DNA of 64,000 nucleotides from an uncultured delta proteobacterium (GTDB lineage Bacteria; Desulfobacterota; Binatia; Bin18), in assembly GCA_963733195.1 (NCBI GenBank), contig CAVTCR010000026.1, positions 32,001 to 96,000 of the forward strand, in the 5' to 3' direction. Below the pieces are notes generated by a model that was not told the origin of the DNA, made no database searches, and was given only the letters and a program-made list of their open reading frames with translations. The translations under genes were made by a program, and so were the position numbers. Of this stretch, positions 1 to 43,213 are shown one piece after another. How positions within the stretch are numbered: position 1 is the first letter of the stretch; every line of letters begins with the position of its first letter.

Positions 1-381
1 TCCTTCGATCAATGCGGTCGAACCCTTGAGATCAGCAAACAGGGCCGTGATGGTTTTCCGCTCACCCTCCATCAGCGAGACCGCACGAATCCGTTCGGCC
101 AGATGAGCAGGCGTCCAGCGGCTCGGGTCCTGGGTTTCGGTGTCCTCCTTTACCCCTTTATCCGTTATCCTTTTCCCCTTATCCTCTTCGGTGTTGCCGA
201 CCCACACCAGCATCTTGCCGTCTTTATCCACTGCCAGCTCTTTGATCTCGATGAGTTCTTCCTTGAGGGCATCAAGCACGTCATCGGTCAGGTCAAACTC
301 CAGCCTCAATGCCCGATACGAGACCCGTTCCTCGCGCTGGAGCCAAGCGAGCGTTTGCGCCACCACTTCAGAAAACTTCAT
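1..381 (-). CDS. Class III adenylate/guanylate cyclase domain protein, 5' part only (runs off the window)
   Basis: Manual translation from ATG at 381: MKFSEVVAQTLAWLQREERVSYRALRLEFDL...WTPAHLAERIRAVSLMEGERKTITALFADLKGSTALIEG. GERKxxTxLFADxxGST is the start of a class III cyclase domain. Not in the ORF track. Confidence 0.8.
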   Translation of the reverse strand, partial: MKFSEVVAQTLAWLQREERVSYRALRLEFDLTDDVLDALKEELIEIKELAVDKDGKMLVWVGNTEEDKGKRITDKGVKEDTETQDPSRWTPAHLAERIRAVSLMEGERKTITALFADLKGSTALIEG

Positions 382-551
382 GCACTGCCCTCATTCCCTA
401 GACGATCTTTTCTCACGATAGGCCTGTCATATTAACCCAGACACCGCAAGTAGCTGTGCGTGCTTTCTATCGCGGGGAGAAGGTACGCACGATTACGTAC
501 GCGCTTTGCCGCGCAACTTTTTCCCAACAAAATCCGAGGAGAAGTGCAAAC

Positions 552-3318: not shown

Positions 3319-3356
3319 ATTGCGCTAATCAGAAAAAGAGGCAAATCACAAGGGTT

Positions 3357-3554
3357 TTCACCCTGAGCCCTTCGATAAACAGGATAAATTCCACGAAGGG
3401 TCTCTCAGAGATTCGCTCGACTCAGAACTCACAATACACTCCTGGTTCCAGCTTTCGCTGGAATGACGAAAACGACAAGCCCGTCATTCCGGGCAAGGCC
3501 GCAGCCGCGACCCGGAATCAGGAGAAACTGGATTCCCGCTTACGCGGGAATGAC
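3357..3554. repeat. Cluster of REP-like palindromic elements
   Basis: gtcattccgggc...cccggaatc...gattcccgcttacgcgggaatgac (3483-3554), plus a ccctgagcccttcgataaac..ggataaattccacgaag unit also seen at about 21350-21420. Confidence 0.75.
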
Positions 3555-3600
3555 GACCCGGGAGTCGCCCTCCGTTTCTGCTTCATGCTTAGCGCTCGCG

Positions 3601-6084
3601 CTATGATGACTCGCAATGGCTACTTTTAAAGAATCTAACCTTCAGCCCAATATCTTTGGCATATTCTCGGATAGTGCGGTCACTAGAAAATTTCCCCATC
3701 CGTGCCACATTCAAGATCGCTTTGTGTGCCCATCCAGCGACATCTTTGAATTCATTTCCGGCTTGTTCTTGCGTTTCGATATAAGAAGGAAGATCCGCCA
3801 AGTGAAAATATTCGTCCCCGTGTTCCACTAGCGCAGAATAAATCCAGCGAAACAGGTCCGGTTCCTCTCGACAAAAGCGATCTGAGTAGAGAGCATCCAT
3901 CACCCGCTTCAGCGCCGGATAGCGCTCGTAGTACTCTCGTGACTGATACGAGCCTTGCTGACGCATGGTTTGAATATCTTGGGCCTGGAGTCCAAAGATG
4001 AAGATATTTTCTCTCCCCACCTCTTCCATAATCTCGATATTGGCCCCATCCAACGTGCCGATCGTCAGCGCGCCATTAAGGGCAAACTTCATGTTGCCTG
4101 TGCCTGACGCTTCCTTGCCAGCAGTGGAAATTTGTTCACTCAAATCAGCCGCAGGGATAATTTTTTCTGCCAGAGAGACACGATAATCAGGAATGAACAC
4201 CACCTTGATCCAATCCCTGACGCGCCGATCGGTATTGATCACTCGTCCGACATTGTTGATCAGTTTAATGATTTGTTTGGCTGCCCAATAACCCGGCGCC
4301 GCTTTACCAGCGAAAATGTAAGTCCGTCGCACAGCCGGTGCTATATTGTCCTCGATGAGACAGAGGTATTCATGAATAATATGTAACACGTTGAGTAACT
4401 GCCGCTTGTATTCATGAATGCGTTTGACCTGGACATCGAACAGTGAATCCGGGTCTACGCTCACTCGGTTGAGGTCCTTAATGACAGAGGCGAGCTGGTC
4501 TTTGTTCGCGCGCTTGATGCGCATGAATTCTTGCTGGAACCCTTCATCCTGAGCGAAGGGAACCAAGGCGTTGAGAGCGTCGAGGTTGGTAATCCACTGG
4601 TCACCAATAGTCTCAGTCAGCAGGCGTGCGAGTAGCGGATTTGCCTGTTGTAACCACCGGCGCTGAGTAATGCCATTGGTTTTGTTGTTGAATCGTTCCG
4701 GCCACAGAGCAAAGAAATCAGGGACAAGCGCAGTTTTCACCAGTTCGGTGTGGAGTGCAGATACGCCATTCACTGAATGACTGCCAACCATCGCCAGGTG
4801 TCCCATGCGCACCTGTGGTTGCTCGCCTGCAGTAATAATGGACAGGTGGTTCATACGCTCGGTATCGTCAGGCCACATCGTAGATGCATGGTCGAGGAAT
4901 CGGCGATTGATCTCAGAGATAATCTGCAAATGCCGGGGCAAGACGTATTCAAAGAGCGACACCGGCCATTTTTCTAATGCTTCTGGTAACAGTGTGTGAT
5001 TTGTATAGCCACAGGTTTCCTGAGTGATCTGCCACGCACGTTCCCAGGGAAGGTTATTTTCGTCAATCAGCACGCGCATCAGCTCTGCGACCGTTACGGC
5101 GGGGTGGGTGTCATTGAGTTGAATCGCCACCTGAGCAGAGAAGTCGTCGAATGTGGTCGCAGTCTGCAAATATCGCTTGACAATATCCCGAATAGCGCAG
5201 GCCACCAGAAAGTATTCCTGGATCAGTCGCAACTCCTGGCCAGCAACGACAGTATCAGCAGGGTAGAGCACCTTGGTAATCGTTTCCGACGCGATCTTTT
5301 GCTCGACTGCTTTAATATAATCTCCGGCGTTGAAGATTTGCATGTCAAAGTCAGCTGAAGATTTGGCAGAATAGAGCCTGAGATAGTTCACTGTCTGGCC
5401 CCCATACCCGACAATTGGGAAATCATGGGGAACACCGATCAGGATTTTCCAATCCATCCACATGGGATTGTATTGCCCCTCACGGTCGAGGGTATGCTCA
5501 ATGCGCCCGTACACGGGAATCAAACAGGCTTCATCTGCGCGCTCGATTTCCCAAGGGGTTCCGTAGACAAGCCAGTTGTCCGGCCTTTCCCTCTGGTAGC
5601 CATTCGTAATCTCTTGCTGAAAGAGACCATACTCATAGTGAATGCCATACCCGTATCCTGGCATTCCCAACGTTGCCAGTGAATCTAAGAAACAAGCAGC
5701 TAAGCGACCGAGGCCGCCATTCCCAAGTGCAGCATCCCGCTCATTTCCCTCTACGTCTGCCAAATCTACACCGAAATCGCGCAATGCCTGTTCACACAAT
5801 TCATACAGACCAAGATTATCCAGGTTATTTCTGAGGGAACGCCCCATGAGAAACTCAATAGAGAGATAATACAATCGTTTCGCATTCGCCTGCTGATAGC
5901 GGGCTTCTGTCGCGAACATCTCATCCACTAAGATCTCCCGTACCGCCAACGCCACAGCTGTAAAGAGATCGTAGCCTGAGAGCTGCTTCCACTCTTTGCC
6001 TAGAGAGTAGCGCACATGGCGACGGATGGATTCTTGCAGAGTAGCAAGAGATACGCTCTCAGGTGCGCTTTTCTTCTCCGCCAT
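3601..6084 (-). CDS. glgP: Glycogen/starch phosphorylase
   Basis: LGNGGLGRLAACFLDS, QLNDTHP, VKRIHEYKRQLLN and PLP motif EASGTGNMKFALNG. Confidence 0.96.
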   Translation of the reverse strand: MAEKKSAPESVSLATLQESIRRHVRYSLGKEWKQLSGYDLFTAVALAVREILVDEMFATEARYQQANAKRLYYLSIEFLMGRSLRNNLDNLGLYELCEQALRDFGVDLADVEGNERDAALGNGGLGRLAACFLDSLATLGMPGYGYGIHYEYGLFQQEITNGYQRERPDNWLVYGTPWEIERADEACLIPVYGRIEHTLDREGQYNPMWMDWKILIGVPHDFPIVGYGGQTVNYLRLYSAKSSADFDMQIFNAGDYIKAVEQKIASETITKVLYPADTVVAGQELRLIQEYFLVACAIRDIVKRYLQTATTFDDFSAQVAIQLNDTHPAVTVAELMRVLIDENNLPWERAWQITQETCGYTNHTLLPEALEKWPVSLFEYVLPRHLQIISEINRRFLDHASTMWPDDTERMNHLSIITAGEQPQVRMGHLAMVGSHSVNGVSALHTELVKTALVPDFFALWPERFNNKTNGITQRRWLQQANPLLARLLTETIGDQWITNLDALNALVPFAQDEGFQQEFMRIKRANKDQLASVIKDLNRVSVDPDSLFDVQVKRIHEYKRQLLNVLHIIHEYLCLIEDNIAPAVRRTYIFAGKAAPGYWAAKQIIKLINNVGRVINTDRRVRDWIKVVFIPDYRVSLAEKIIPAADLSEQISTAGKEASGTGNMKFALNGALTIGTLDGANIEIMEEVGRENIFIFGLQAQDIQTMRQQGSYQSREYYERYPALKRVMDALYSDRFCREEPDLFRWIYSALVEHGDEYFHLADLPSYIETQEQAGNEFKDVAGWAHKAILNVARMGKFSSDRTIREYAKDIGLKVRFFKSSHCESS

Positions 6085-11505: not shown

Positions 11506-11650
11506 GAGTTTTCTTTTTCTATAGAGACAACATACCAAGATGTAGGTTCTGAGCATACCGTGGCGGGCGCAGCCCGCCCTACGTGTTTTCGTGCGTTCCA
11601 GAGTAGGGCAGGCTGTGCCTGCCATCGTCAACTCCCTCATCTGAGCGTCT

Positions 11651-12121: not shown

Positions 12122-12262
12122 TCACCAGCGTTCTCTCGGTTCTGCATAGTGCACCTTCCTCTTCAGATCCAGATAGCGTGAACCGATCATCAGGGCAAGG
12201 GAAGATGCCGATCGGCAGTGGTTTGTTTTCTTCCTTAGAATAAGAAGAAACTTTGCGATCTT

Positions 12263-12356
12263 TGTCATTCTGAGGAGCAACGCGACGAAGAATCTCTCAG
12301 ACCCAAGTGCGGAGGGGAGAGATTCTTCACTCCGTTGCGCTCCGTTCAGAATGACA
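12263..12356. repeat. REP-like palindrome (GTCATTCTGA...TCAGAATGAC)
   Basis: Terminal inverted repeats tgtcattctga/tcagaatgaca with internal gaagaatctc/gagattcttc arms. Confidence 0.8.
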
Positions 12357-13718: not shown

Positions 13719-13789
13719 GTCATTGCGAGCGAAGCGAAGCAATCCTTGTATTCTGGAGATTGCTTCGTCGTACGACTCTTCGCAATGAC
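13719..13789. repeat. REP-like palindrome (GTCATTGCGAGCGAAGCGAAGCAATC type)
   Basis: Near-identical arms to the copy at 51541-51616. Confidence 0.85.
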
Positions 13790-29276: not shown

Positions 29277-30846
29277 ATGGCGAATTATGAATTAAAAGAC
29301 GATAGCGTGGTCGTCATCATCGGCTCTGGTGCGGGCGGTGGTACCCTGGCCAATGAATTGTGTCAGAAGGGAGTGAAGGTCGTTCTCCTTGAAGCTGGCA
29401 AACGCATTGAAATTAAGGATTTTGTCAATGATGAGTGGCCGATGTTCAACAAGATCGCCTGGCTCGATAAGCGGACTACTTCTGGGTCGTGGCGTGTCGC
29501 CAAGAATTTCCCCAATCTTCCAGCATGGACAGTGAAAGCTGTCGGTGGAACGACTGTACATTGGGCTGGAGCGTCGTTGCGATTTAAGGACTTTGAATTC
29601 AAAGCCCGCTCGACCTACGGTGAGATTGCTGGTGCGAACTTGCTCGATTGGCCAATCACACTTAGCTGATTTAGAGCCGTACTATGCGCGCGCTGAGGAT
29701 AAGATGGGTGTAACGGGGACCAATAGTATTCCTCGCTTGCCGGGGAACAATAATTTTAAGGTCCTTGCCGCTGGAGCGAAGAAACTCGGTTACAAGCAAG
29801 TCCACACTGGCAATATGGCGATTAACTCACAGCCGCGTGACGGACGTAGCGGATGTATGCAAATTGGCTTCTGCTTTGAAGGTTGTAAGAGCGGAGCAAA
29901 ATGGTCGACGTTGTATACGGAGATCCCCAAGGCCGAGGCGACAGGCAAACTTGACTTACGACCAGAGAGCCAGGTATTGCGTATTCTTCATAACGACAAA
30001 GGAAAAGTTTCTGGCGTTGTCTATGCCGACAAAAACGGCAAGCAGGTCGAGCAAAAAGCCCGGGTCGTCTGTGTCGCTGCGAACTCAATCGAAAGTGCGC
30101 GGCTGCTTCTCAACTCTTCCTCGAACACATTCCCAAATGGGTTGGCCAATTCTTCTGGACAGGTTGGGCGCAATTATATGCGCCATATGACTGGCAGCGT
30201 ATATGGCATGTTTCCTAACGAAGTGAATATGCACCGTGGCACGATAATGGCTGGGATTGTTGAGGACGAAGCGATCAATGATCCGAAGCGTGGTTTTGTC
30301 GGTGGCTATCATATGGAGACCATTTCACTTGGGTTGCCGTTCATGGCCGCGTTTCTTGATCCGGGAGCATGGGGACGCGACTTTACCGAGATGCTCGATC
30401 AATTTAATCACATGGCTGGCATGTGGCTGGTCGGTGAGGATATGCCGCGTGAGAGCAATCGCATCACGTTGCATGCAACTGAAAAAGACCAGTTTGGTAT
30501 GCCCATTCCTAACGTGCATTTTGATGACCACGACAACGATGTTGCAATGCGTAAGCACGCCTATAAACAAGGATCTGCAATCTACAGTGCGGTTGGCGCG
30601 ACGAAAAACTTTGAAACGCCGCCGTATCCTTCAACGCACAATTTGGGGACCAACCGCATGAGCGAGAAGTCGCGCGACGGTGTGGTGAACAAGTGGGGAC
30701 AATCCCACGATATCGCTAACTTATTTATTTCTGATGGCAGCCAATTTACGACCGGCGGGGCGTCAAATCCAACTTTGACGATTGTAACTCTTGCAATTCG
30801 GCAGGCTGAGTATATTACTGAGGCGATGAGTAAGCAGGATATCTGA
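29277..30846 (+). CDS. GMC family FAD oxidoreductase (one frameshift)
   Basis: IGSGAGGG, VGGTTVHW, ESARLLLNS, HNLGTNRM, NPTLTI. Confidence 0.9.
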
Positions 30847-35824: not shown

Positions 35825-36400
35825 ATGATGACAATGATCGTTGGTTTGATAATGGGTTCGACAGCTTGGGCACATCGCGATCGAGGACCTGATGATCCAT
35901 GTCGAAAGCAGATAGGAGATTCGCTATTGCACATCACACTCTACCAACCGCACTTTGATCCTGATGCTGAGTATTGCGAAGAGGTTCCGCGTGCAGGGAG
36001 GACAGTGGTGGTAGTAGATGTGACTGCTGGTGAATTGCGGCAAGTTCCAATCAGTGTGGAAATGGTAGCTCAGTAGTGAATCTGGGCAGTCGCGTTCGGT
36101 GTCTGTCGCTTCCGGCAAAGATATTGGATCGAGGGATGGTAGATTCTGAAGTGGTTTTGGACGAGGGCAACAATTACGTTGCTGAGGTTGTGGTTGACCT
36201 GGGGGCCGGAAAGGAACCGCAGAAATTTTCCTTTCCTATTCAAGTGGATCCATGGTATACCGCAATGGTGAAACCGGCATTGATGGTTCGTTGGGTTGCT
36301 CCTAGTAACGGTAATTTCGGTGATTCGTTATCAGATGAGTTCTCGACAGCAGGAAGAGATGTCAGTAGGCAAAAGAAGGGTACGCCGAGTAGCAAATTAA
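35825..36400 (+). CDS. PmoD/AmoD-like copper-binding accessory protein (two apparent frameshifts)
   Basis: Signal peptide ending AWA-H; DPC...IG..LLHITLYQP.....EYCEEVP..G.TVVVVD....LR..P, the PmoD/AmoD pattern. C-terminal TM helix VGLLLVTVISVI; stop at 36400 directly before the next RBS. Confidence 0.72.
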
Positions 36401-36412
36401 GGAGGGTTCTAT

Positions 36413-37270
36413 ATGGCACAGTCACAAGTGGTGCGGCAGACGCCACGAGAAAATGGCCACAGTACAACCACGACTGGGTATTCCGCCAAACCGACAGGCT
36501 GGATGGTTGGGTGGAAGTCGTTGTTTGTCAGCTGCGCGATCATTATGGCAGCGAACGTGTTCCTCTGGTTCTGGAATTACGCCTATATGTTCACGGCCGG
36601 GTTGAACTCGGCGAGTCCAGAGTTCACCTATTATTACCGGTCGCTCTTTTGGGGCGAGGTCATCACGTTAGGCTTGTTTACCGGTATATGGTTTGGCTGG
36701 TTGATTAGAACAGGCCGTGAGATGGTCGGGCAACCGTGCGAGCGTGCGGAAGAGGTGCGACGAATCGCGGTTCTCTGGAGCTTGATTGGCGCTACGAGCC
36801 TCTGCGTGTATCTGATGGCTAGCTTCTGGCCGAACTGGGACGGATCATGGCATCAGACAATGGTGCGCGATACTGCGCTTACCCCGACGCACATCCCGAT
36901 GTTCTACTTCTTCTTCCCGTTGTCGGTAACTTTGGCTTTAGGCTCATACATCTACGGACGTTTTCGTATTCCCGCGTTATATGCCAAAGAGAAGGGATTT
37001 CCGTGGTCGTTCTTCCTGTTGATTAGTGCTGCGGTGCTGGAATGCATGACGGTTGCTGCCAATGAGTGGGGGCACAGCCTGTGGATTTCTGAAGAGATTT
37101 TCTCGGTCCCCTTCCACTGGCCGTTCGTTGTGTACGGCTGGCTAGCTAGCGGTATGTTTGCGGTGTGGGGCGAGACGATCATCCGCTTGTTCGAGATTGA
37201 AAAGGCTGAAGAAGCCGCGACCTCAGGGACGTCAGGCGCGTCGTTGCGTCAGCAGGCGGTCACAGACTAA
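36413..37270 (+). CDS. pmoC: Copper membrane monooxygenase subunit C (PmoC/AmoC family)
   Basis: AGLNSASPEF..YY, DGSWHQTMVRDTALTPTH (CuC D/H/H) and NEWGH..W..EE.F..PFHW (CuD N/H/H). Confidence 0.93.
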   Translation: MAQSQVVRQTPRENGHSTTTTGYSAKPTGWMVGWKSLFVSCAIIMAANVFLWFWNYAYMFTAGLNSASPEFTYYYRSLFWGEVITLGLFTGIWFGWLIRTGREMVGQPCERAEEVRRIAVLWSLIGATSLCVYLMASFWPNWDGSWHQTMVRDTALTPTHIPMFYFFFPLSVTLALGSYIYGRFRIPALYAKEKGFPWSFFLLISAAVLECMTVAANEWGHSLWISEEIFSVPFHWPFVVYGWLASGMFAVWGETIIRLFEIEKAEEAATSGTSGASLRQQAVTD

Positions 37271-37380
37271 GGATAATGAAGAATGTGGAATGGAGAATGA
37301 AAAATTCAGAGCGAAACGTTCTGAACTCTTCGTTCGTTTTGTATTTTTCACATTCTTAATTCTTCATTCTTAATTTTTAA
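37271..37380. repeat. Inverted arrays of degenerate heptamer repeats between subunits C and A
   Basis: aatgaag/aatgtgg/aatggag/aatgaaa followed by cattctt/aattctt/cattctt/aattttt. Confidence 0.65.
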
Positions 37381-37401
37381 TTAGACAGAGAGGATCGCCT
37401 C

Positions 37402-38206
37402 ATGGCAGCAGGGACAACAACAGTAACTGACATTGCCGATGCCGCCGAACGGCAAAAACGGCTGGAACTCAAAGCACTCCTGAACAAGGAGTACAAGTGG
37501 ATTGATCGCAGCTGGGATATCGTCTTCTGGGTAACGGCGATTTTCGTGGTCGCCGGTGCAGCGGATATCACGAAGCAGTTGTTCGCCGGTGACTGGGACT
37601 TCTGGACAGATTGGAAAGATCCCCAGTGGTGGCCGGTGGTTACCGCTTTTGCCACCATCATCATTCCCTCTGCTCTGCAATATATCCAATGGGCAGCGTG
37701 GCGCTTCCCGACAGGTGCGACATATACATCCTGTTGTTTCTTTCTTGCAGCCTGGGTTGGACGCTACTTTAATTGGCACATTGCAGAAGCCTATCCGATG
37801 AACTTCGTGTGGCCTATTTCCACGATATGCGCAGGGATCATTCTCGACTTCACGTTGATGAAGACAAAAAGTTTCCTCATCACGTCTTTTGTCGGTGCGC
37901 ATCTCTGGGCAGTGCTTAGTGTGGGCGTACAATTATGTTCCGCTAGCTCCCTTTCTACAGCCTGCGATGTTCATGGACCATGTTTTGACGCTCGCTGACG
38001 TCCAAGGCATCGTCTACATTCGATCGCAGACGCCAGAGTATCTGCGACTCATTGAGCGTGGCGCATTGCGAAGTTTTCTGGGTGAGACTCAGTACGTTTC
38101 GTTAGCCTTTGCTGGGACTGCGGCTTTCGCTGGATACTGGATTGGCCAGTTCATTGGTCGGTATCTCGCTGTGTGGCCGATCCGACGATACCTGAAGACT
38201 CTCTAA
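37402..38206 (+). CDS. pmoA: Copper membrane monooxygenase subunit A (PmoA/AmoA family), one frameshift near 37920
   Basis: GDWDFWTDWKD.QWW, RFPTGAT, RYFNW, YPMNFVWP, LADVQG..YIRSQTPEYLRLIERGALRSF. Confidence 0.92.
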
Positions 38207-38221
38207 GAACATAAAGTACGC

Positions 38222-38615
38222 ATGGGGAAACGGATGAAAACCCGACTGGCCGTACCATCTCGACACACCTGGCTGATACATGTGACCATGTTGGCCTGCA
38301 TGTTCGTGCTGCCTGCACTAGCACACGCACACGGTGGGATGGGACCTGATGAAATTGGCCCACCTATTGGCACCGCAGGGTTGATCGGTTTTGCCAGCTA
38401 TTGGGTGGTGATGCTGTGGCCTTCAAGAAAGAAGAAAGATGAGCTCACAGACTGGACCCAACAGTCAACACCCTGACGCTGCAGCGAATGACCTGGACGC
38501 CCACGCAAGAGAAAGAACCCTCGTGTGAAGCGGATTCCGCATCTGCGTAAGGTCGAGGCGGGCGCGACAGATTTCTAGCGACCAGCCCGCGAGGAGGAAA
38601 GCGAGCGATGGATAG
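38222..38615 (+). CDS. Small membrane protein between subunits A and B (signal peptide, His-Gly-Gly N-terminus, one TM helix, basic tail)
   Basis: LPALAHA-HGGMGPDEIGPP...IGFASYWVVMLWP-SRKKK. The ORF stops at 38476, but basic coding-like sequence (RPRKRKNPRVKRIPHLRKVE...RRKASDG*) continues in shifted frames to overlap the B start. Confidence 0.6.
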
Positions 38616-39856
38616 GAAGCTTTTGACAATCCTCATGACACTGGCTCTTGTGGTAACAGTCAGTGTCTCGAAAGTATTCGCTCATGGGGAAGCTGGTGAC
38701 GAACCGTTCCTTAAGAACATGACCACTGCGTTTTATGACGTATCGGTCTCACCTACGGAAATCGAGGTCGGTCAACCAGTAACAGTAACGGGAACAGTCA
38801 AAATTCTCGAGACTTGGCCGCACACACTTGAGGCACCCGAGCTTGCTGCGATCGTTCCCGTAGTTCCGGGGCCTGTATTCGTCATGAAAGACCGGACTAT
38901 CAATGACCAAGCCTCGGTAGGTTCGTTTTTTGCCGAGAAGGGTGGGATTTATCAGTTTAAGATGACACTCCTCGGCAAAGAGCCTGGAAAATGGCATGTC
39001 CATCCAGGGATCGCGATCAGTGGAACCGGAACGCTGGTTGGGCCTGGTGAATGGGTCAACGTGAAAGCCAGCGCGACGAAATTTGAGTTTCCTGTGACAG
39101 TTGCTCAATGGGCAGACAGTTGAACTCAACACCTACGGTGGCCAGTTCGTGTGGTGGTGGTCGTTCGCCGGATTTCTCCTTGGGATGGCGTGGATGGTGT
39201 ACTGGACATTCACGAAACGAACAGTGACAAACCTTGCGGTGACGATGCAACTTCCGGTGAACGATGACGGACCTGACATTGGTCTCATCACGCCACGTGA
39301 CCACATGTGGATGAATGTCATCGCTGGCCTGACCATAGCGCTCCTGATCGTTGGCTGGACCTACTCAGCAACCCAATATCCAGTGCGATGGCCGCAGCAG
39401 ACCGACTGGATTACCCCGCGTCACATTTCCTCGGGAGACAAGATGGCCGAGGTACATGCAGGCGGAGCCACCTACGATGACGGAACCGATACGTTAGTGA
39501 TGAAGCTCCAAGTCAAGAACACTACAGCCAGCGCGCTTACTCTTAACCGTGTTGTTATCGGGATGGCGACATTCGTGCCGGGCGGGGAAGCGGAACAGGC
39601 GAAAGCTGGACCGCGCGATTTCGTCGGACCGCTCGAAGTGGAACCAAAAGGTGAGATTGCTCCGGGTGAGACGAAAGATCTGACATTGACGATCGCGAGC
39701 AAGATTTTCAGTACGGCACGATTGATCCCGCTGAATGATCCGCAGCAGTTTGTTGCGGCGCTCTTACGCTTTGAGAACGCCCAAGGCGGTCAGCAGTTAG
39801 TGACAGTGCGTTCGGGCGTCGTGCCGACCCAGTTCCGTGGACAGTTCTTGCCATAA
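38608..39856 (+). CDS. pmoB: Copper membrane monooxygenase subunit B (PmoB/AmoB family), one frameshift near 39100
   Basis: Signal peptide then HGE (N-terminal His), PGPVF, WHVHP...GPGEWV (CuB His brace), two TM helices and second cupredoxin domain (IAPGETK, RL). Confidence 0.92.
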
Positions 39857-39864
39857 TCTTGCGA

Positions 39865-39887
39865 AGGTGGGGAGAAAATCCCCACCT
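39865..39887. terminator. Hairpin between subunit B and the convergent VOC gene
   Basis: aggtgggga-gaaaa-tccccacct perfect 9-bp stem. Confidence 0.5.
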
Positions 39888-39966
39888 CGTCAAGCTGCCA
39901 AGAGTAAACAGCGCTTCATTTTTCCTTACTTTCTCTGCTTTCCCCTTAGCCTTTAGCCTATTTCCC

Positions 39967-40440
39967 TTAATATCCGGTTGTGACCTCAACCAAAATGTCA
40001 TCTGGGTCTCGCACGTAGACCGACCCTGCGGTTTCTGTGCCATGCAAAGAATACGGTACGTGCTTTTCCTTAAGTGTCGTCAGGATCGCAGAGAATTTTT
40101 CTGAAGTGGCCTTGAGCGCGACATGATGCATACTGCCGACGCCTCGGACCGTTCGTGCCGGCCCTTTCTCGGGGAAATCGAAAAACGCTAACTGGTTGCC
40201 ACCGCCCATATCGAGAAAGATATGGGTAGACGTGGGTTCGTCACGGTTCGCCATAATCTTGCTGAGGCGCATGCCGAGGACCTCAGTGTAGAAACGGATA
40301 GTCGTATCAAGGTCTGAACAAATCAGCGCGAGATGATCGACCCCGCCAGTGTTGACAGCTTGAGGCGTTCCCTCGTCGGTGGATAGATAGCGTTGTTTGA
40401 GTTCTTCACGACGGGCCTGGTACATACTCAGGTCTGACAT
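39967..40440 (-). CDS. VOC/glyoxalase family protein
   Basis: GVDHLAL...FYTEVLGM...MHHVAL...SVYVRDPDDILVE. Confidence 0.88.
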   Translation of the reverse strand: MSDLSMYQARREELKQRYLSTDEGTPQAVNTGGVDHLALICSDLDTTIRFYTEVLGMRLSKIMANRDEPTSTHIFLDMGGGNQLAFFDFPEKGPARTVRGVGSMHHVALKATSEKFSAILTTLKEKHVPYSLHGTETAGSVYVRDPDDILVEVTTGY

Positions 40441-40726
40441 AGCATTCTCCTACTGTTGCTTCACTCGCTACGGGTCTGATGCCCGAAGCTTGCTGCGAGG
40501 TTCTTCACTATTCCTCGCTCTTTTTTTGTTTGTCAACTGCAGATAGATACTGGCTGACCTCCGCGGTAGACTTTCATTCCGAGTTGCGGCTGCGGCCTCA
40601 GATCTGGAACGGCTCGATTGTGACCCTCTGTCCGCCCCAACCTTAAACGCTGCCTCATGAGGTTCTGCTGCAGCACCTGGCAATGCAAACTTGCCCTGTT
40701 GCGCAAGTCAGGATAAACCTCCCCCG

Positions 40727-42495
40727 ATGTTTATTCGTCGTGTTTTGACATTCATACTTTTTATGGTGATGTTGATGGCTGCTGTGCTGCTCGTGCCAGC
40801 TGCATGGCTTCCGCAATCGTGGCAATCTTATTACGCCGCATGGTTTGGTGAACCCTCGTACGAGGCTCCGCCCAGCAGCCAAAAAGTCGCCATTCCTCCA
40901 GCTGAACCATTTTGCCCGGACCTGCATCCTGAGTGGCGCAAAGCGCAGGAGATCGACGGTGTGACGATTGACGAGTCACTTGCTTGTTCTCCTGATAATC
41001 CGTGGGCCATTGCTGCGTTTGTCAAAGGGACGAACAACGTGTCGATGGACACGTTGATGAAATCTGGCTTAGCGACCGATGCGGTCGTGATGGGCGAAGA
41101 TAAAGATGGCGATGGTGATCCTGATGTCGTCACCATCAAGCTAGAAGTTGCGGAATTCAACGGACGCTCGCCCGATATGTCTGAAGTCATTCCTGCGTTT
41201 TTATCGCTCCGGGTATTCAACCGGGATTGTGGGTGTTTGCGCCAAAGATTGCCGGGATGGCAACAAAGAATGCAGAGACAGTAGAAGCGAACGAATTCCT
41301 ACGTGCGCCGTCGCCGGTGATCCGCGTTGAACAAGGTGACACCGTGCAAGTGATTCTTGAAAATACGCACTATTTTCCGCATACGATACATTTTCATGGG
41401 GTCGATCATCCTTATTCACATCATGAAGGCCATGGCAACGACGGAGTACCAGAAGCAAATGAACTGCCTGTGATGCCTGGCGAGAGCCGTGCGTATGAAT
41501 TTTCGCAAATGGCTCAGTCAGCGATGCATACTGGACATGGGGAAGTCGATCCCGGCAGACGTCGCACGTTCGAGATGGCACCACGGCATCCAGGGACGAT
41601 GTTCTATCATTGTCACGTGCAACCGCAGCATCATATTCACATGGGGTTACAGGGGATGTTTGTGGTCGAGGAGAATCGCCCGAACAATTGGGTGCAGACG
41701 TTAAATATTGGTGCCGGTCACGTCCGTCATCCTTCCGTGGCGGTGCGCGAGAAATATGTGCGTGAGTATGATCTCCATTTTCAGGATATCGATAGTCAAC
41801 TGAATGATCTGATCAAAAGTACGAACGACCCGCGGGTGTTAGAGAAGCGGATGAATCGGCAGTATAACATCACAAAGCGTAGCGCCAATTACTTTCTGCT
41901 CAATGGGAAATCTTTTCCATATACATTTCGTGATTCGTTGGTAGTCGTCGAACCGAACGAGAAAGTAAAATTGCGCGTGCTCGCTGGTGGTGAGGAAGGG
42001 CTATCGCTTCACCCCCATGGCCATAAAGTAAAAATCACGCACTATGATGGCGTGGAGCACAATCCTGTAGCGCAAATTACGCGCGACGTTGTGTGGCTCA
42101 GCATGGCCCAGCGGGTGGACTTAGAACTCAACACCACGAATGACGGTTTACATGGCACTGGCGATGGTGTGTGGTTTCTTCACGACCACAAAGAGCGTGC
42201 GTTTACAACTGACGGAATGCATCCTGGTGGCAGTGCTACTGCGATCGTGTATCGATCCTATCTTGATGAACGTGGCTGGCCAAAACTGCAAGGCGTCGAT
42301 TGGTCATTGTTCTTTACTCCACAGTATTATCGGCGTGAGATTCCAGTGTGGACAACCTATGATCCGACCGGCATGTTTGGCGAACCCGGCCCTGCGACCT
42401 CGCGTCTCGGACGGTTTATCTTGCTTGGTTTTGTTGTCGGCGCGCTCCTGGGATGTTTGACTGTCTTGCTACTATCATTGCGAAAACGTGCGTAA
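40727..42495 (+). CDS. Membrane-anchored two-domain multicopper oxidase (frameshift near 41200)
   Basis: HTIHFHG, FYHCHVQPQHHIHMG (type 1 Cu in domain 1), LHPHGH and WFLHDH; N- and C-terminal hydrophobic segments. Confidence 0.87.
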
Positions 42496-43213
42496 GGCGG
42501 ACGTGATGTGGTTCATAGTGCTGCTGTTCTTTGCTCTTTTTGTTCCATCGCGAACTATAGAGGCGCAACCTGCGACGGAGAACCTCACTCCGGCAGACTC
42601 AGGCCATGCTCACCACCAACACCAGGCTGCCTCTCATGAACACCACGGCATGCAGATGGACATGGGTGGCATGGTGATGAATGAGAATCATGACCAACTG
42701 CCGCGGGACTGTGGCAGGATTGCTGGAGAACAAAAAATTACAGTCCATGCTGGCAGGAAGTACGCGCAGCAGTTCAACGGCACGATGTTCGCGTACGATC
42801 AGCACGAATGGGATGTTGCTCCGTGCACGAAAGTGACTGTGACGTTGGAGAATGAAGATACTGTGCGTCATCAATGGATGCTGCACGGATTGCCACGCTA
42901 TCTTCATGCCGAGGGCATGTTTCATCTCGAAGTCAACGGACGAGGGAGTAAGAGTGGAACGTTTATCACACCGGGTGCGAAGAAAACCTACCTTGTTCAC
43001 TGTGATGTTGCCCAACACATGGAAAAAGGCATGAAGGCCCAGCTGAAAGTTGGCGGAGGCGATGGTAATCTGCCAAGTATTCCTGGTATTACCGGGGCTC
43101 GTTACCCAGAAACATATTCGGGTGCACGAGTTGGATGGGGTACGTGGATAATTCTTCTTCTGTGTCTGTTTAGTGCTGCTTTGACTGTACGTGGGTTGAG
43201 ACGGTGGGAATAA
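42488..43213 (+). CDS. Cupredoxin-like copper protein with His/Met-rich N-terminus and C-terminal anchor
   Basis: HAHHQHQAASHEHHGMQMDMGGM; HQWMLHG; HCDVAQHMEKGM type 1 Cu motif; overlaps the oxidase stop. Confidence 0.8.
   Translation: MRKADVMWFIVLLFFALFVPSRTIEAQPATENLTPADSGHAHHQHQAASHEHHGMQMDMGGMVMNENHDQLPRDCGRIAGEQKITVHAGRKYAQQFNGTMFAYDQHEWDVAPCTKVTVTLENEDTVRHQWMLHGLPRYLHAEGMFHLEVNGRGSKSGTFITPGAKKTYLVHCDVAQHMEKGMKAQLKVGGGDGNLPSIPGITGARYPETYSGARVGWGTWIILLLCLFSAALTVRGLRRWE

Follow-up and report, generated by a model that had tools for sequence, protein, structure and literature searches.

Replaced tricopper-site residues in a Binatia copper membrane monooxygenase of the bmoA-type lineage

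Is a copper membrane monooxygenase (CuMMO) that keeps its CuB, CuC and CuD ligands, and has other residues where particulate methane monooxygenase (pMMO) carries the proposed tricopper ligands, a peculiar enzyme or an ordinary member of a family? The question is raised by an operon in a 64,000-nucleotide stretch of DNA from an uncultured delta proteobacterium of the Binatia (hereafter the window), which lies on contig C26 (the assembly comprises 6.9 Mb in 87 contigs and is 93% complete) and holds the single pmoA locus of the whole genome. Judged from the sequences compared here, the residue pattern is a lineage trait, ordinary for its lineage, and reflects replacement rather than decay.

Metal-site residues of PmoA, PmoC and PmoB

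The operon encodes the three CuMMO subunits together in the order C-A-x-B. They match Pfam AmoC (PF04896, E-value 4e-44), AMO (PF02461, 2.9e-36 and 2.5e-15) and Monooxygenase_B (PF04744, 8.9e-40 and 1.5e-30), all above the curated cut-offs, which places the enzyme in the CuMMO superfamily. The NCBIfam equivalog models for canonical pMMO and ammonia monooxygenase (AMO) were not reached: an intact PmoA orthologue (P0002) scored 205.6 against a cut-off of 290 (AmoA_BACT) and 178.6 against 318.15 (CH4_NH3mon_ox_A), and the PmoC of the window scored 166.4 against 319 and 145.6 against 280.6.

The PmoA residues were read from a gapless phmmer alignment to Methylococcus capsulatus Bath PmoA (1yew_B and others), in which query residues 34-172 correspond to chain residues 17-155 at an offset of 17; against PDB chains, the best E-values of the PmoA fragment were 3e-26 to 5e-29. 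His38 is replaced by Asp55 (GAT, 37564-37566), His40 by Thr57, Met42 by Gln59 and Glu100 by Ala117 (GCC, 37750-37752), while Asp47 and Asp49 are retained as Asp64 and Asp66. Asn103 is replaced by Gly120 and Arg104 is kept as Arg121; among the residues around the modelled CuE density of 7ev9 (His38, Met42, Glu100, Asn103 and Arg104; PMC12576850), Arg104 alone is retained.

PmoC Glu154, which we take to be a further residue of the proposed tricopper site (site D or CuE), is replaced by Asn141. Opposite PNWDGSWH...TPTH of the window, the Methylocystis chains have TEQDGAWH...TPSH. The numbering of their D129/H133/H146 is uniformly 27 lower than that of Bath D156/H160/H173; it follows from this offset that Glu154 corresponds to Asn141 and that the CuC ligands are retained as Asp143/His147/His160. 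The CuD ligands lie in the motif NEWGH...PFH as Asn217/His221/His235 (Bath Asn227/His231/His245). In PmoB, aligned to chain 3rgb_A, the CuB ligands His33, His137 and His139 are retained as His26, His130 and His132. The positions of the CuA histidines, which we take to be PmoB His48 and His72, read Ala41 and Lys65. All PmoA and PmoC sites fall inside 36820-37790, and the PmoB sites lie at 38683-39003. The Bath ligand numbers of PmoC are those of PMC12576850, the alignment itself being to the Methylocystis chains.

The residues listed for the tricopper site, PmoA His38, Met42, Asp47, Asp49 and Glu100, are conserved in methanotrophs (PMC9145241), and the window retains only Asp47 and Asp49. A reading of the DNA by eye, without database searches (the sequence-only reading), had already named the four PmoA changes and the PmoC change, the retention of Asp47 and Asp49, and the presence of all CuB, CuC and CuD ligands; the alignments to solved chains bear each of these out. 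Compared with Bath pMMO and bacterial AMO (PDB 1yew, 3rgb, 7s4h, 7ev9 and 9cl6), the enzyme thus shares the three-subunit fold family and the CuB, CuC and CuD ligands, whereas PmoA His38, His40, Met42, Glu100 and Asn103 and PmoC Glu154 are replaced and the CuA histidines are absent.

The pattern in the bmoA-type lineage

A protein search returned 194 relatives among 286 candidates, and all 12 that were fetched carry A-D-I-T. The survey built on it comprised 113 distinct PmoA sequences from 166 loci (the loci of relatives plus two collection scans), many loci being the same contig twice; the loci of the window's own genome (L001-L002), same-genus contigs analysed separately (L015-L016) and unrelated loci (L017-L026) were set aside. 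Written in the order His38, His40, Met42, Asp47, Asp49 and Glu100, the patterns were DTQDDA (53 sequences), DTLDDS (26), DTQDDT (8), DTLDDT (6), DTLDDA and DTLDDQ (5 each), DTLDDE and NTLDDT (1 each), HSMDDA (6) and HHMDDQ (2).

A (D/N)-T-(Q/L) motif is therefore carried by 105 of the 113 PmoA, always together with Asn in PmoC, whose Glu occurs in the remaining 8 only. The check that the sequence-only reading had called for, whether orthologues share the substitutions, thus came out positive for both subunits (105/113 each); the changes are not sequencing noise. The position of Glu100 is held by Ala, Ser, Thr or Gln in these PmoA, and by Glu in one. Of the 113 PmoC sequences, 104 show the site string NDHHNHH, as does one more that is truncated; the CuC and CuD ligands are complete in 112 of 113 PmoC, and the CuB histidine brace in all 113 PmoB. 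The replacing residues are themselves conserved (Asp55 in 104/105, Thr57 in 105/105, PmoC Asn141 in 105/105), which is why we speak of replacement and not of decay.

The eight exceptions come from Binatia genomes that hold a second CuMMO (L005-L010 and L003-L004; relatives G009-G026), with H-S-M...A in six and H-H-M...Q in two. The six with HSMDDA represent a paralogue, the second CuMMO of their genomes, and the HHMDDQ sequences, which score far higher on Pfam AMO (350-380 bits), may be TUSC-like. Both types keep PmoC Glu154, so that His38/Met42 and Glu154 co-vary across types.

In a PmoA tree (a quick IQ-TREE run, unrooted, the careful search being unfinished), the 106 rows with D/N-T-Q/L form one clade with a long stem (SH-aLRT 96). 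It contains a Binatia subclade of 83 rows (SH-aLRT 99) with the window inside, adjoining L030 at 96% identity, as well as an Actinomycetota group and rows from Chloroflexota, Rokubacteria and Dormibacterota. The closest loci belong to metagenome-assembled genomes (MAGs) labelled Candidatus Binatia, Binataceae or 'Deltaproteobacteria'. Cultured carriers of the pattern are Nocardioides luteus BAFB, Nocardioides sp. NPDC051685 and Lentzea sp. NPDC051838.

By its place in the clade and its CAxB order with a PmoD-type gene, the enzyme is a member of the published CuMMO lineage known as 'Actinobacteria/SAR324 bmoA-type' or 'putative pmoA Binatales'. Binatota CuMMOs have been described with CAB, CAxB or CAxxB order, with pmoD in some genomes and with PmoB His33/137/139 conserved; their PmoA form two clades, one of which groups with the bmoA of Nocardioides CF8, Mycolicibacterium, Rhodococcus and SAR324 (Murphy et al. 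2021, PMC8262859). A 2026 preprint likewise groups 'putative pmoA Binatales' with hydrocarbon monooxygenases (HMOs), apart from verified pmoA (10.64898/2026.02.02.703227). The window agrees with the Binatota bmoA-type enzymes in taxon, clade, CAxB order, PmoD-like gene and PmoB His33/137/139 and differs in nothing essential, apart from the frameshifts of its assembled copy. What had been presented as a peculiarity of this enzyme is instead the defining state of a whole published lineage with cultured members. The passages of both papers at hand are silent on the tricopper-site positions of PmoA and PmoC. Our literature search, which left subscription journals and supplements (including Fig. 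S1 of PMC8262859) outside its scope, found no paper that mentions the tricopper site alongside butane monooxygenase, CF8 or CuMMO, nor one on these positions in the bmoA-type clade.

Butane monooxygenases of the Nocardioides type share the D-T-(Q/L) clade with the window through N. luteus BAFB, Nocardioides sp. NPDC051685 and Nocardioides MAGs. Like the window, they have the PmoC Asn and retain the CuB, CuC and CuD ligands, and the PmoA fragment of the window is 69% identical to Lentzea PmoA (P0051). They differ in phylum, in position 42 (Leu instead of Gln) and in position 100 (Ser or Gln instead of Ala). Nocardioides sp. CF8 was absent by name from the 80 loci kept in each of three collection scans.

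The HMO of Mycolicibacterium chubuense NBB4, encoded by HmoCAB on plasmid pMYCCH.01 (NC_018022.1), represents a different type. It resembles the window in being a CuMMO with CAB order and CuB, CuC and CuD ligands, and in having no Glu100 (Gln) or His40 (Asn). Unlike the window, it retains His38, Met42 and PmoC Glu154, HmoA reading H-L-N-Q-M at 38-42 with Ser at 49; HmoA is 41% identical to Lentzea P0051 and falls on a long branch outside the D/N-T-Q/L clade, so neither kinship nor site pattern joins the window to it. Mutagenesis of HMO has been published (cited in PMC10432482 and PMC13058606) and is not transferable to the D-T-Q type because the site types differ; for the same reason we rejected the idea that NBB4 HMO proves activity of the variant. 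Plasmids carry the CuMMO operons of M. chubuense NBB4, Mycobacterium dioxanotrophicus and two strains of Rhodococcus, and three of five plasmid matches were typed as mobilizable.

Elsewhere in the superfamily, Methylomagnum PxmA retains His38 and His40 and has Ala at 42 and Thr at 100, while Nitrosomonas europaea AmoA retains His38, His40, Met42 and Glu100. The full tricopper ligand set is thus a property of canonical pMMO and AMO that erodes stepwise across the superfamily, with the bmoA-type clade as the most complete case. The 'loss' of which the sequence-only reading had spoken is not shown: the tree is unrooted, and the absence may be ancestral, since the D-sites in AmoC and AmoA have been described as unneeded for catalysis, conserved within bacterial lineages only and absent from described archaeal sequences (Diamond et al. 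2022, PMC9038741).

Interrupted frames and gene neighborhood

Between 35.8 and 43.2 kb, the plus strand carries, in order, a PmoD-like gene, pmoC, a 131-nt spacer, pmoA, gene x, pmoB, a multicopper oxidase gene and a cupredoxin-like gene, with a minus-strand glyoxalase-family gene after pmoB (Table 1). Five of these genes (PmoD-like, pmoA, x, pmoB and multicopper oxidase) are frameshifted, which the sequence-only reading had overlooked.

Table 1. Coordinates of the operon and its associated genes in the window
Feature	Position	Strand	Remarks
PmoD-like copper protein gene	35825..36400	+	predicted mature N-terminus AWA|H; frame changes near 36076 and near 36290
pmoC-like gene	36413..37270	+	285 aa, intact; Pfam AmoC 4e-44
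pmoC-pmoA spacer	37271..37401	.	A+T-rich palindromic repeat element
pmoA-like gene	37402..38206	+	two frames, 37402-37914 and 37916-38206; an additional base near 37912-37916
Small conserved membrane-protein gene x	38222..38608	+	between pmoA and pmoB; in-frame stops
pmoB-like gene	38608..39856	+	two frames, 38608 to ~39096 and ~39101 to 39856
Multicopper oxidase gene	40691..42495	+	two frames, one base missing near 41200; Pfam Cu-oxidase_3, _2, Cu-oxidase
Cupredoxin-like protein gene	42488..43213	+	weak Cu-oxidase_2 match; adjoins multicopper oxidase, arrangement conserved

At the pmoA break (~37912-37916), Pfam AMO positions 7-148 and 148-232 fall in separate open reading frames (ORFs), and the window reads CTTAGTG where two genomes of the same genus (G001 and G002) read C-TGGTG. 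The pmoB break (~39096-39102) separates positions 1-140 and 140-379 of Pfam Monooxygenase_B in the same manner. G001 and G002 have single frames for PmoA (270-271 aa), PmoB (441 aa) and the multicopper oxidase (595 aa), each of which matches the window in two frames (for the G002 oxidase, frame 2 and then frame 1), and the intact PmoA orthologue P0002 has 267 aa at 94% identity. Several of the interruptions come down to one surplus T, and in one case a base is lacking. Past the pmoA break, the protein is 91.7-95.8% identical to the same-genus orthologues, whereas the DNA is only 76-79% identical.

Similar interruptions occur throughout the genome. Eight of nine RND transporter loci lie in 2-5 pieces and one is in a single frame (e.g. 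C37:19006-22087, C12:22913-25993), and class I aminoacyl-tRNA synthetase genes on C31 (21728-23334) and C70 (111478-113035) are split or contain internal stops. In the window itself, a GMC oxidoreductase and a histidine kinase are truncated relative to their Pfam profiles. Since essential tRNA synthetases and RND loci are split genome-wide, the frameshifts in the five genes most likely arose as indel errors during a noisy assembly, and not through gene decay. Short contigs from four read runs (each holding at most 6% of the words of 36400-42500) have 1, 2 and 1 bases fewer at 38441/38443, 38493 and 38567 in gene x, which is weak evidence at ~90% identity.

The breaks might instead be true lesions, with frameshifts and in-frame stops marking a pseudogene cluster in this strain whose copy makes no enzyme. 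About seven or more indel-type lesions in ~6.7 kb and five genes, the loss of frame at the same pmoA codon in P0001 from another assembly, and the presence of only one pmoA locus in the genome would all fit such decay. We consider it improbable nonetheless, given that the tRNA synthetases and RND loci are broken likewise, that several changes are single extra T's, and that the out-of-frame downstream parts keep 92-96% protein identity to the same-genus orthologues at their much lower DNA identity. Programmed +1 frameshifting, which both the pmoA and the pmoB break would need, was rejected because the same-genus orthologues are unbroken, the two contexts have no common motif and the genome is broken everywhere.

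The PmoD-like gene matches neither Pfam nor NCBIfam; in G002 the orthologue is unbroken (225 aa between stops), matches PmoD of PDB 6cpd (E 6.5e-8) and aligns to the window by tblastn at 52.6% identity. This PmoD homologue (also at L015:9249-9923 (-)) has an extra C-terminal membrane segment. Gene x is likewise without a Pfam or NCBIfam match and is 63% identical over 125 aa to a 122-aa ORF of G002, with three stops within the match. Its product (also at L015:7030-7395 (-)) is a conserved single-pass protein with a His-first predicted mature N-terminus, AHA|H (..ALAHA|HGGMGPDE..), and a basic C-terminal tail, RPRKRKNPRVKRIPHLRKV.

Downstream of the operon, the 595-aa multicopper oxidase and the cupredoxin-like protein are found in both the window and G002. 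The Pfam match of the cupredoxin-like protein has an E-value of 0.0015 in the window and 0.00021 in the G002 orthologue, to whose ORF it is 73.8% identical. The gap between pmoB and the multicopper oxidase (39841-40687) holds the glyoxalase/VOC-family gene (39967-40440, minus strand); the same gap measures ~130 nt in G002. A GMC flavoprotein oxidoreductase, accompanied by a small subunit that bears a Tat signal (window 29545-30846; L015:10577-12720 (-)), lies directly upstream of the operon in G002 and ~5 kb upstream in the window, where the N-terminal part of the oxidoreductase is missing from the frame.

The palindromic element of the pmoC-pmoA spacer has arms AAGAATG...CATTCTT, and blastn finds 17 further matches to it, spread over 13 other contigs of this genome; where contigs from other samples cover the region, they end exactly at 37345-37383. 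Short dispersed repeats at window positions 1-400, 3347-3618, 11560-11625, 12256-12356 and 13719-13789 have 16-82 blastn matches in their own genome and many more in G001 and G002. Over its first 20 kb, the window shows only scattered matches to these two genomes, with many dispersed repeats.

Catalysis and substrate

The locus is a PmoD-like/xmoC/xmoA/x/xmoB operon of the known bmoA-type lineage; we consider it probable that its enzyme catalyzes at PmoC and acts on a substrate other than methane, and that its genes are interrupted by assembly indels. Oxygen activation and substrate hydroxylation would proceed at one or more copper sites of PmoC, in line with the view now favored for pMMO and AMO. 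The polar patch between PmoA and PmoC would then be a structural or hydrogen-bonded interface holding no copper cluster, and CuB would contribute to structure or to electron transfer. Copper handling or electron transfer may likewise occupy the PmoD-like protein, the small protein x with its N-terminal His, the cupredoxin and the multicopper oxidase. The kinship of the clade and the pair of Tat subunit and GMC flavoprotein upstream of the operon point to a small hydrocarbon or a compound akin to one as substrate (a C2-C4 alkane, possibly acetone).

Several points weigh against this picture. We know of no Binatia enzyme whose activity, substrate or metal content has been established. The survey loci were fetched with peptide patterns derived from the clade, so that 105/113 is a count of the clade's neighborhood and not a frequency among all CuMMOs. 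Concerning the assembly, the frame of P0001 (another assembly, 93% identical) shifts at this very pmoA codon and once more beyond it, which may reflect a hotspot of systematic error or else a true lesion common to both, and the short contigs from the four read runs, mostly 90-99% identical, span none of 37913, 39098 and 41200. As for the substrate, some Binatia genomes with this enzyme also have methanol dehydrogenase genes, and the link to C2-C4 alkanes comes from literature on CF8 (PMC8262859), a presumed carrier of the D-T-L pattern.

Were the enzyme a true methane monooxygenase, acting for instance on methane at trace levels, it would represent a naturally occurring pMMO that lacks the tricopper ligands. 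The retention of all CuB, CuC and CuD ligands is compatible with this, as is a methanol dehydrogenase homologue in five of nine Binatota genomes with this type (PMC8262859). We nevertheless hold it to be very unlikely. The PmoA orthologue and PmoC score below the NCBIfam equivalog cut-offs (178.6 vs 318.15 and 145.6 vs 280.6), the enzyme groups with Nocardioides-type sequences, whose representative CF8 oxidizes C2-C4 alkanes and not methane (PMC8262859, citing Hamamura 2001 and Sayavedra-Soto 2011), and the preprint separates Binatales pmoA-like sequences from verified pmoA and places them with hydrocarbon monooxygenases (10.64898/2026.02.02.703227).

The conservation of the replacing residues raises another prospect, namely that Asp55, Thr57, Gln or Leu59, Asp64 and Asp66 together with PmoC Asn141 form a remodelled functional site, which would bind a hard metal ion or relay protons and water to the PmoC copper, with chemistry unlike that of pMMO. 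Besides that conservation (Asp 104/105, Thr 105/105, PmoC Asn 105/105), three carboxylates now face the patch, and the PmoA and PmoC changes co-occur: His38 and Met42 accompany Glu in all eight surveyed outgroup sequences and in NBB4 HMO, and Pxm retains His38 and Glu154 with Ala at Met42. This co-variation, however, stems from one deep branch and counts as a single evolutionary event. A precise ligand set is also hard to reconcile with Gln or Leu at position 42 and Ala, Ser, Thr, Gln or Glu at position 100, and a structure or metal analysis exists for none of these enzymes; we therefore regard such a site as highly doubtful. The related proposal that Asp-x-Thr, Asp64/Asp66 and PmoC Asn141 are a re-engineered polar site between PmoA and PmoC (a hard metal or a relay feeding CuC/CuD) that arose once and helps to set a non-methane substrate range is speculative and in our view improbable, yet directly testable because cultured Nocardioides and Lentzea carry the motif.

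Coming back to catalysis at PmoC, the sequence-only reading had offered the enzyme as a natural test of the pMMO active-site debate. Its premises stand, as the pattern is real and shared by orthologues and the CuB, CuC and CuD ligands are retained; as a test, it is weak and confounded. Published work associates the lineage with C2-C4 alkanes instead of methane (PMC8262859), the change may have run in either direction, the genes are frameshifted as assembled, and quantum refinement found copper unsupported at CuE of 7ev9, the only structure in which the tricopper site is modelled with copper (Yuvaraj et al. 2025, PMC12576850).

The indel-rich assembly is itself a warning that broken genes in this genome are not to be taken as pseudogenes or as biology. 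The lineage was already known, and the value of the finding is comparative: a widespread CuMMO clade holds every CuB, CuC and CuD ligand and does without the tricopper-site His, Met and Glu, a clade-wide pattern that fits the present view of catalysis in PmoC. NBB4 HMO, which has been used for CuMMO mutagenesis, is not of the D-T-(Q/L) type; the cultured carriers Nocardioides luteus BAFB and Lentzea sp. allow tests that do not depend on uncultured Binatia.

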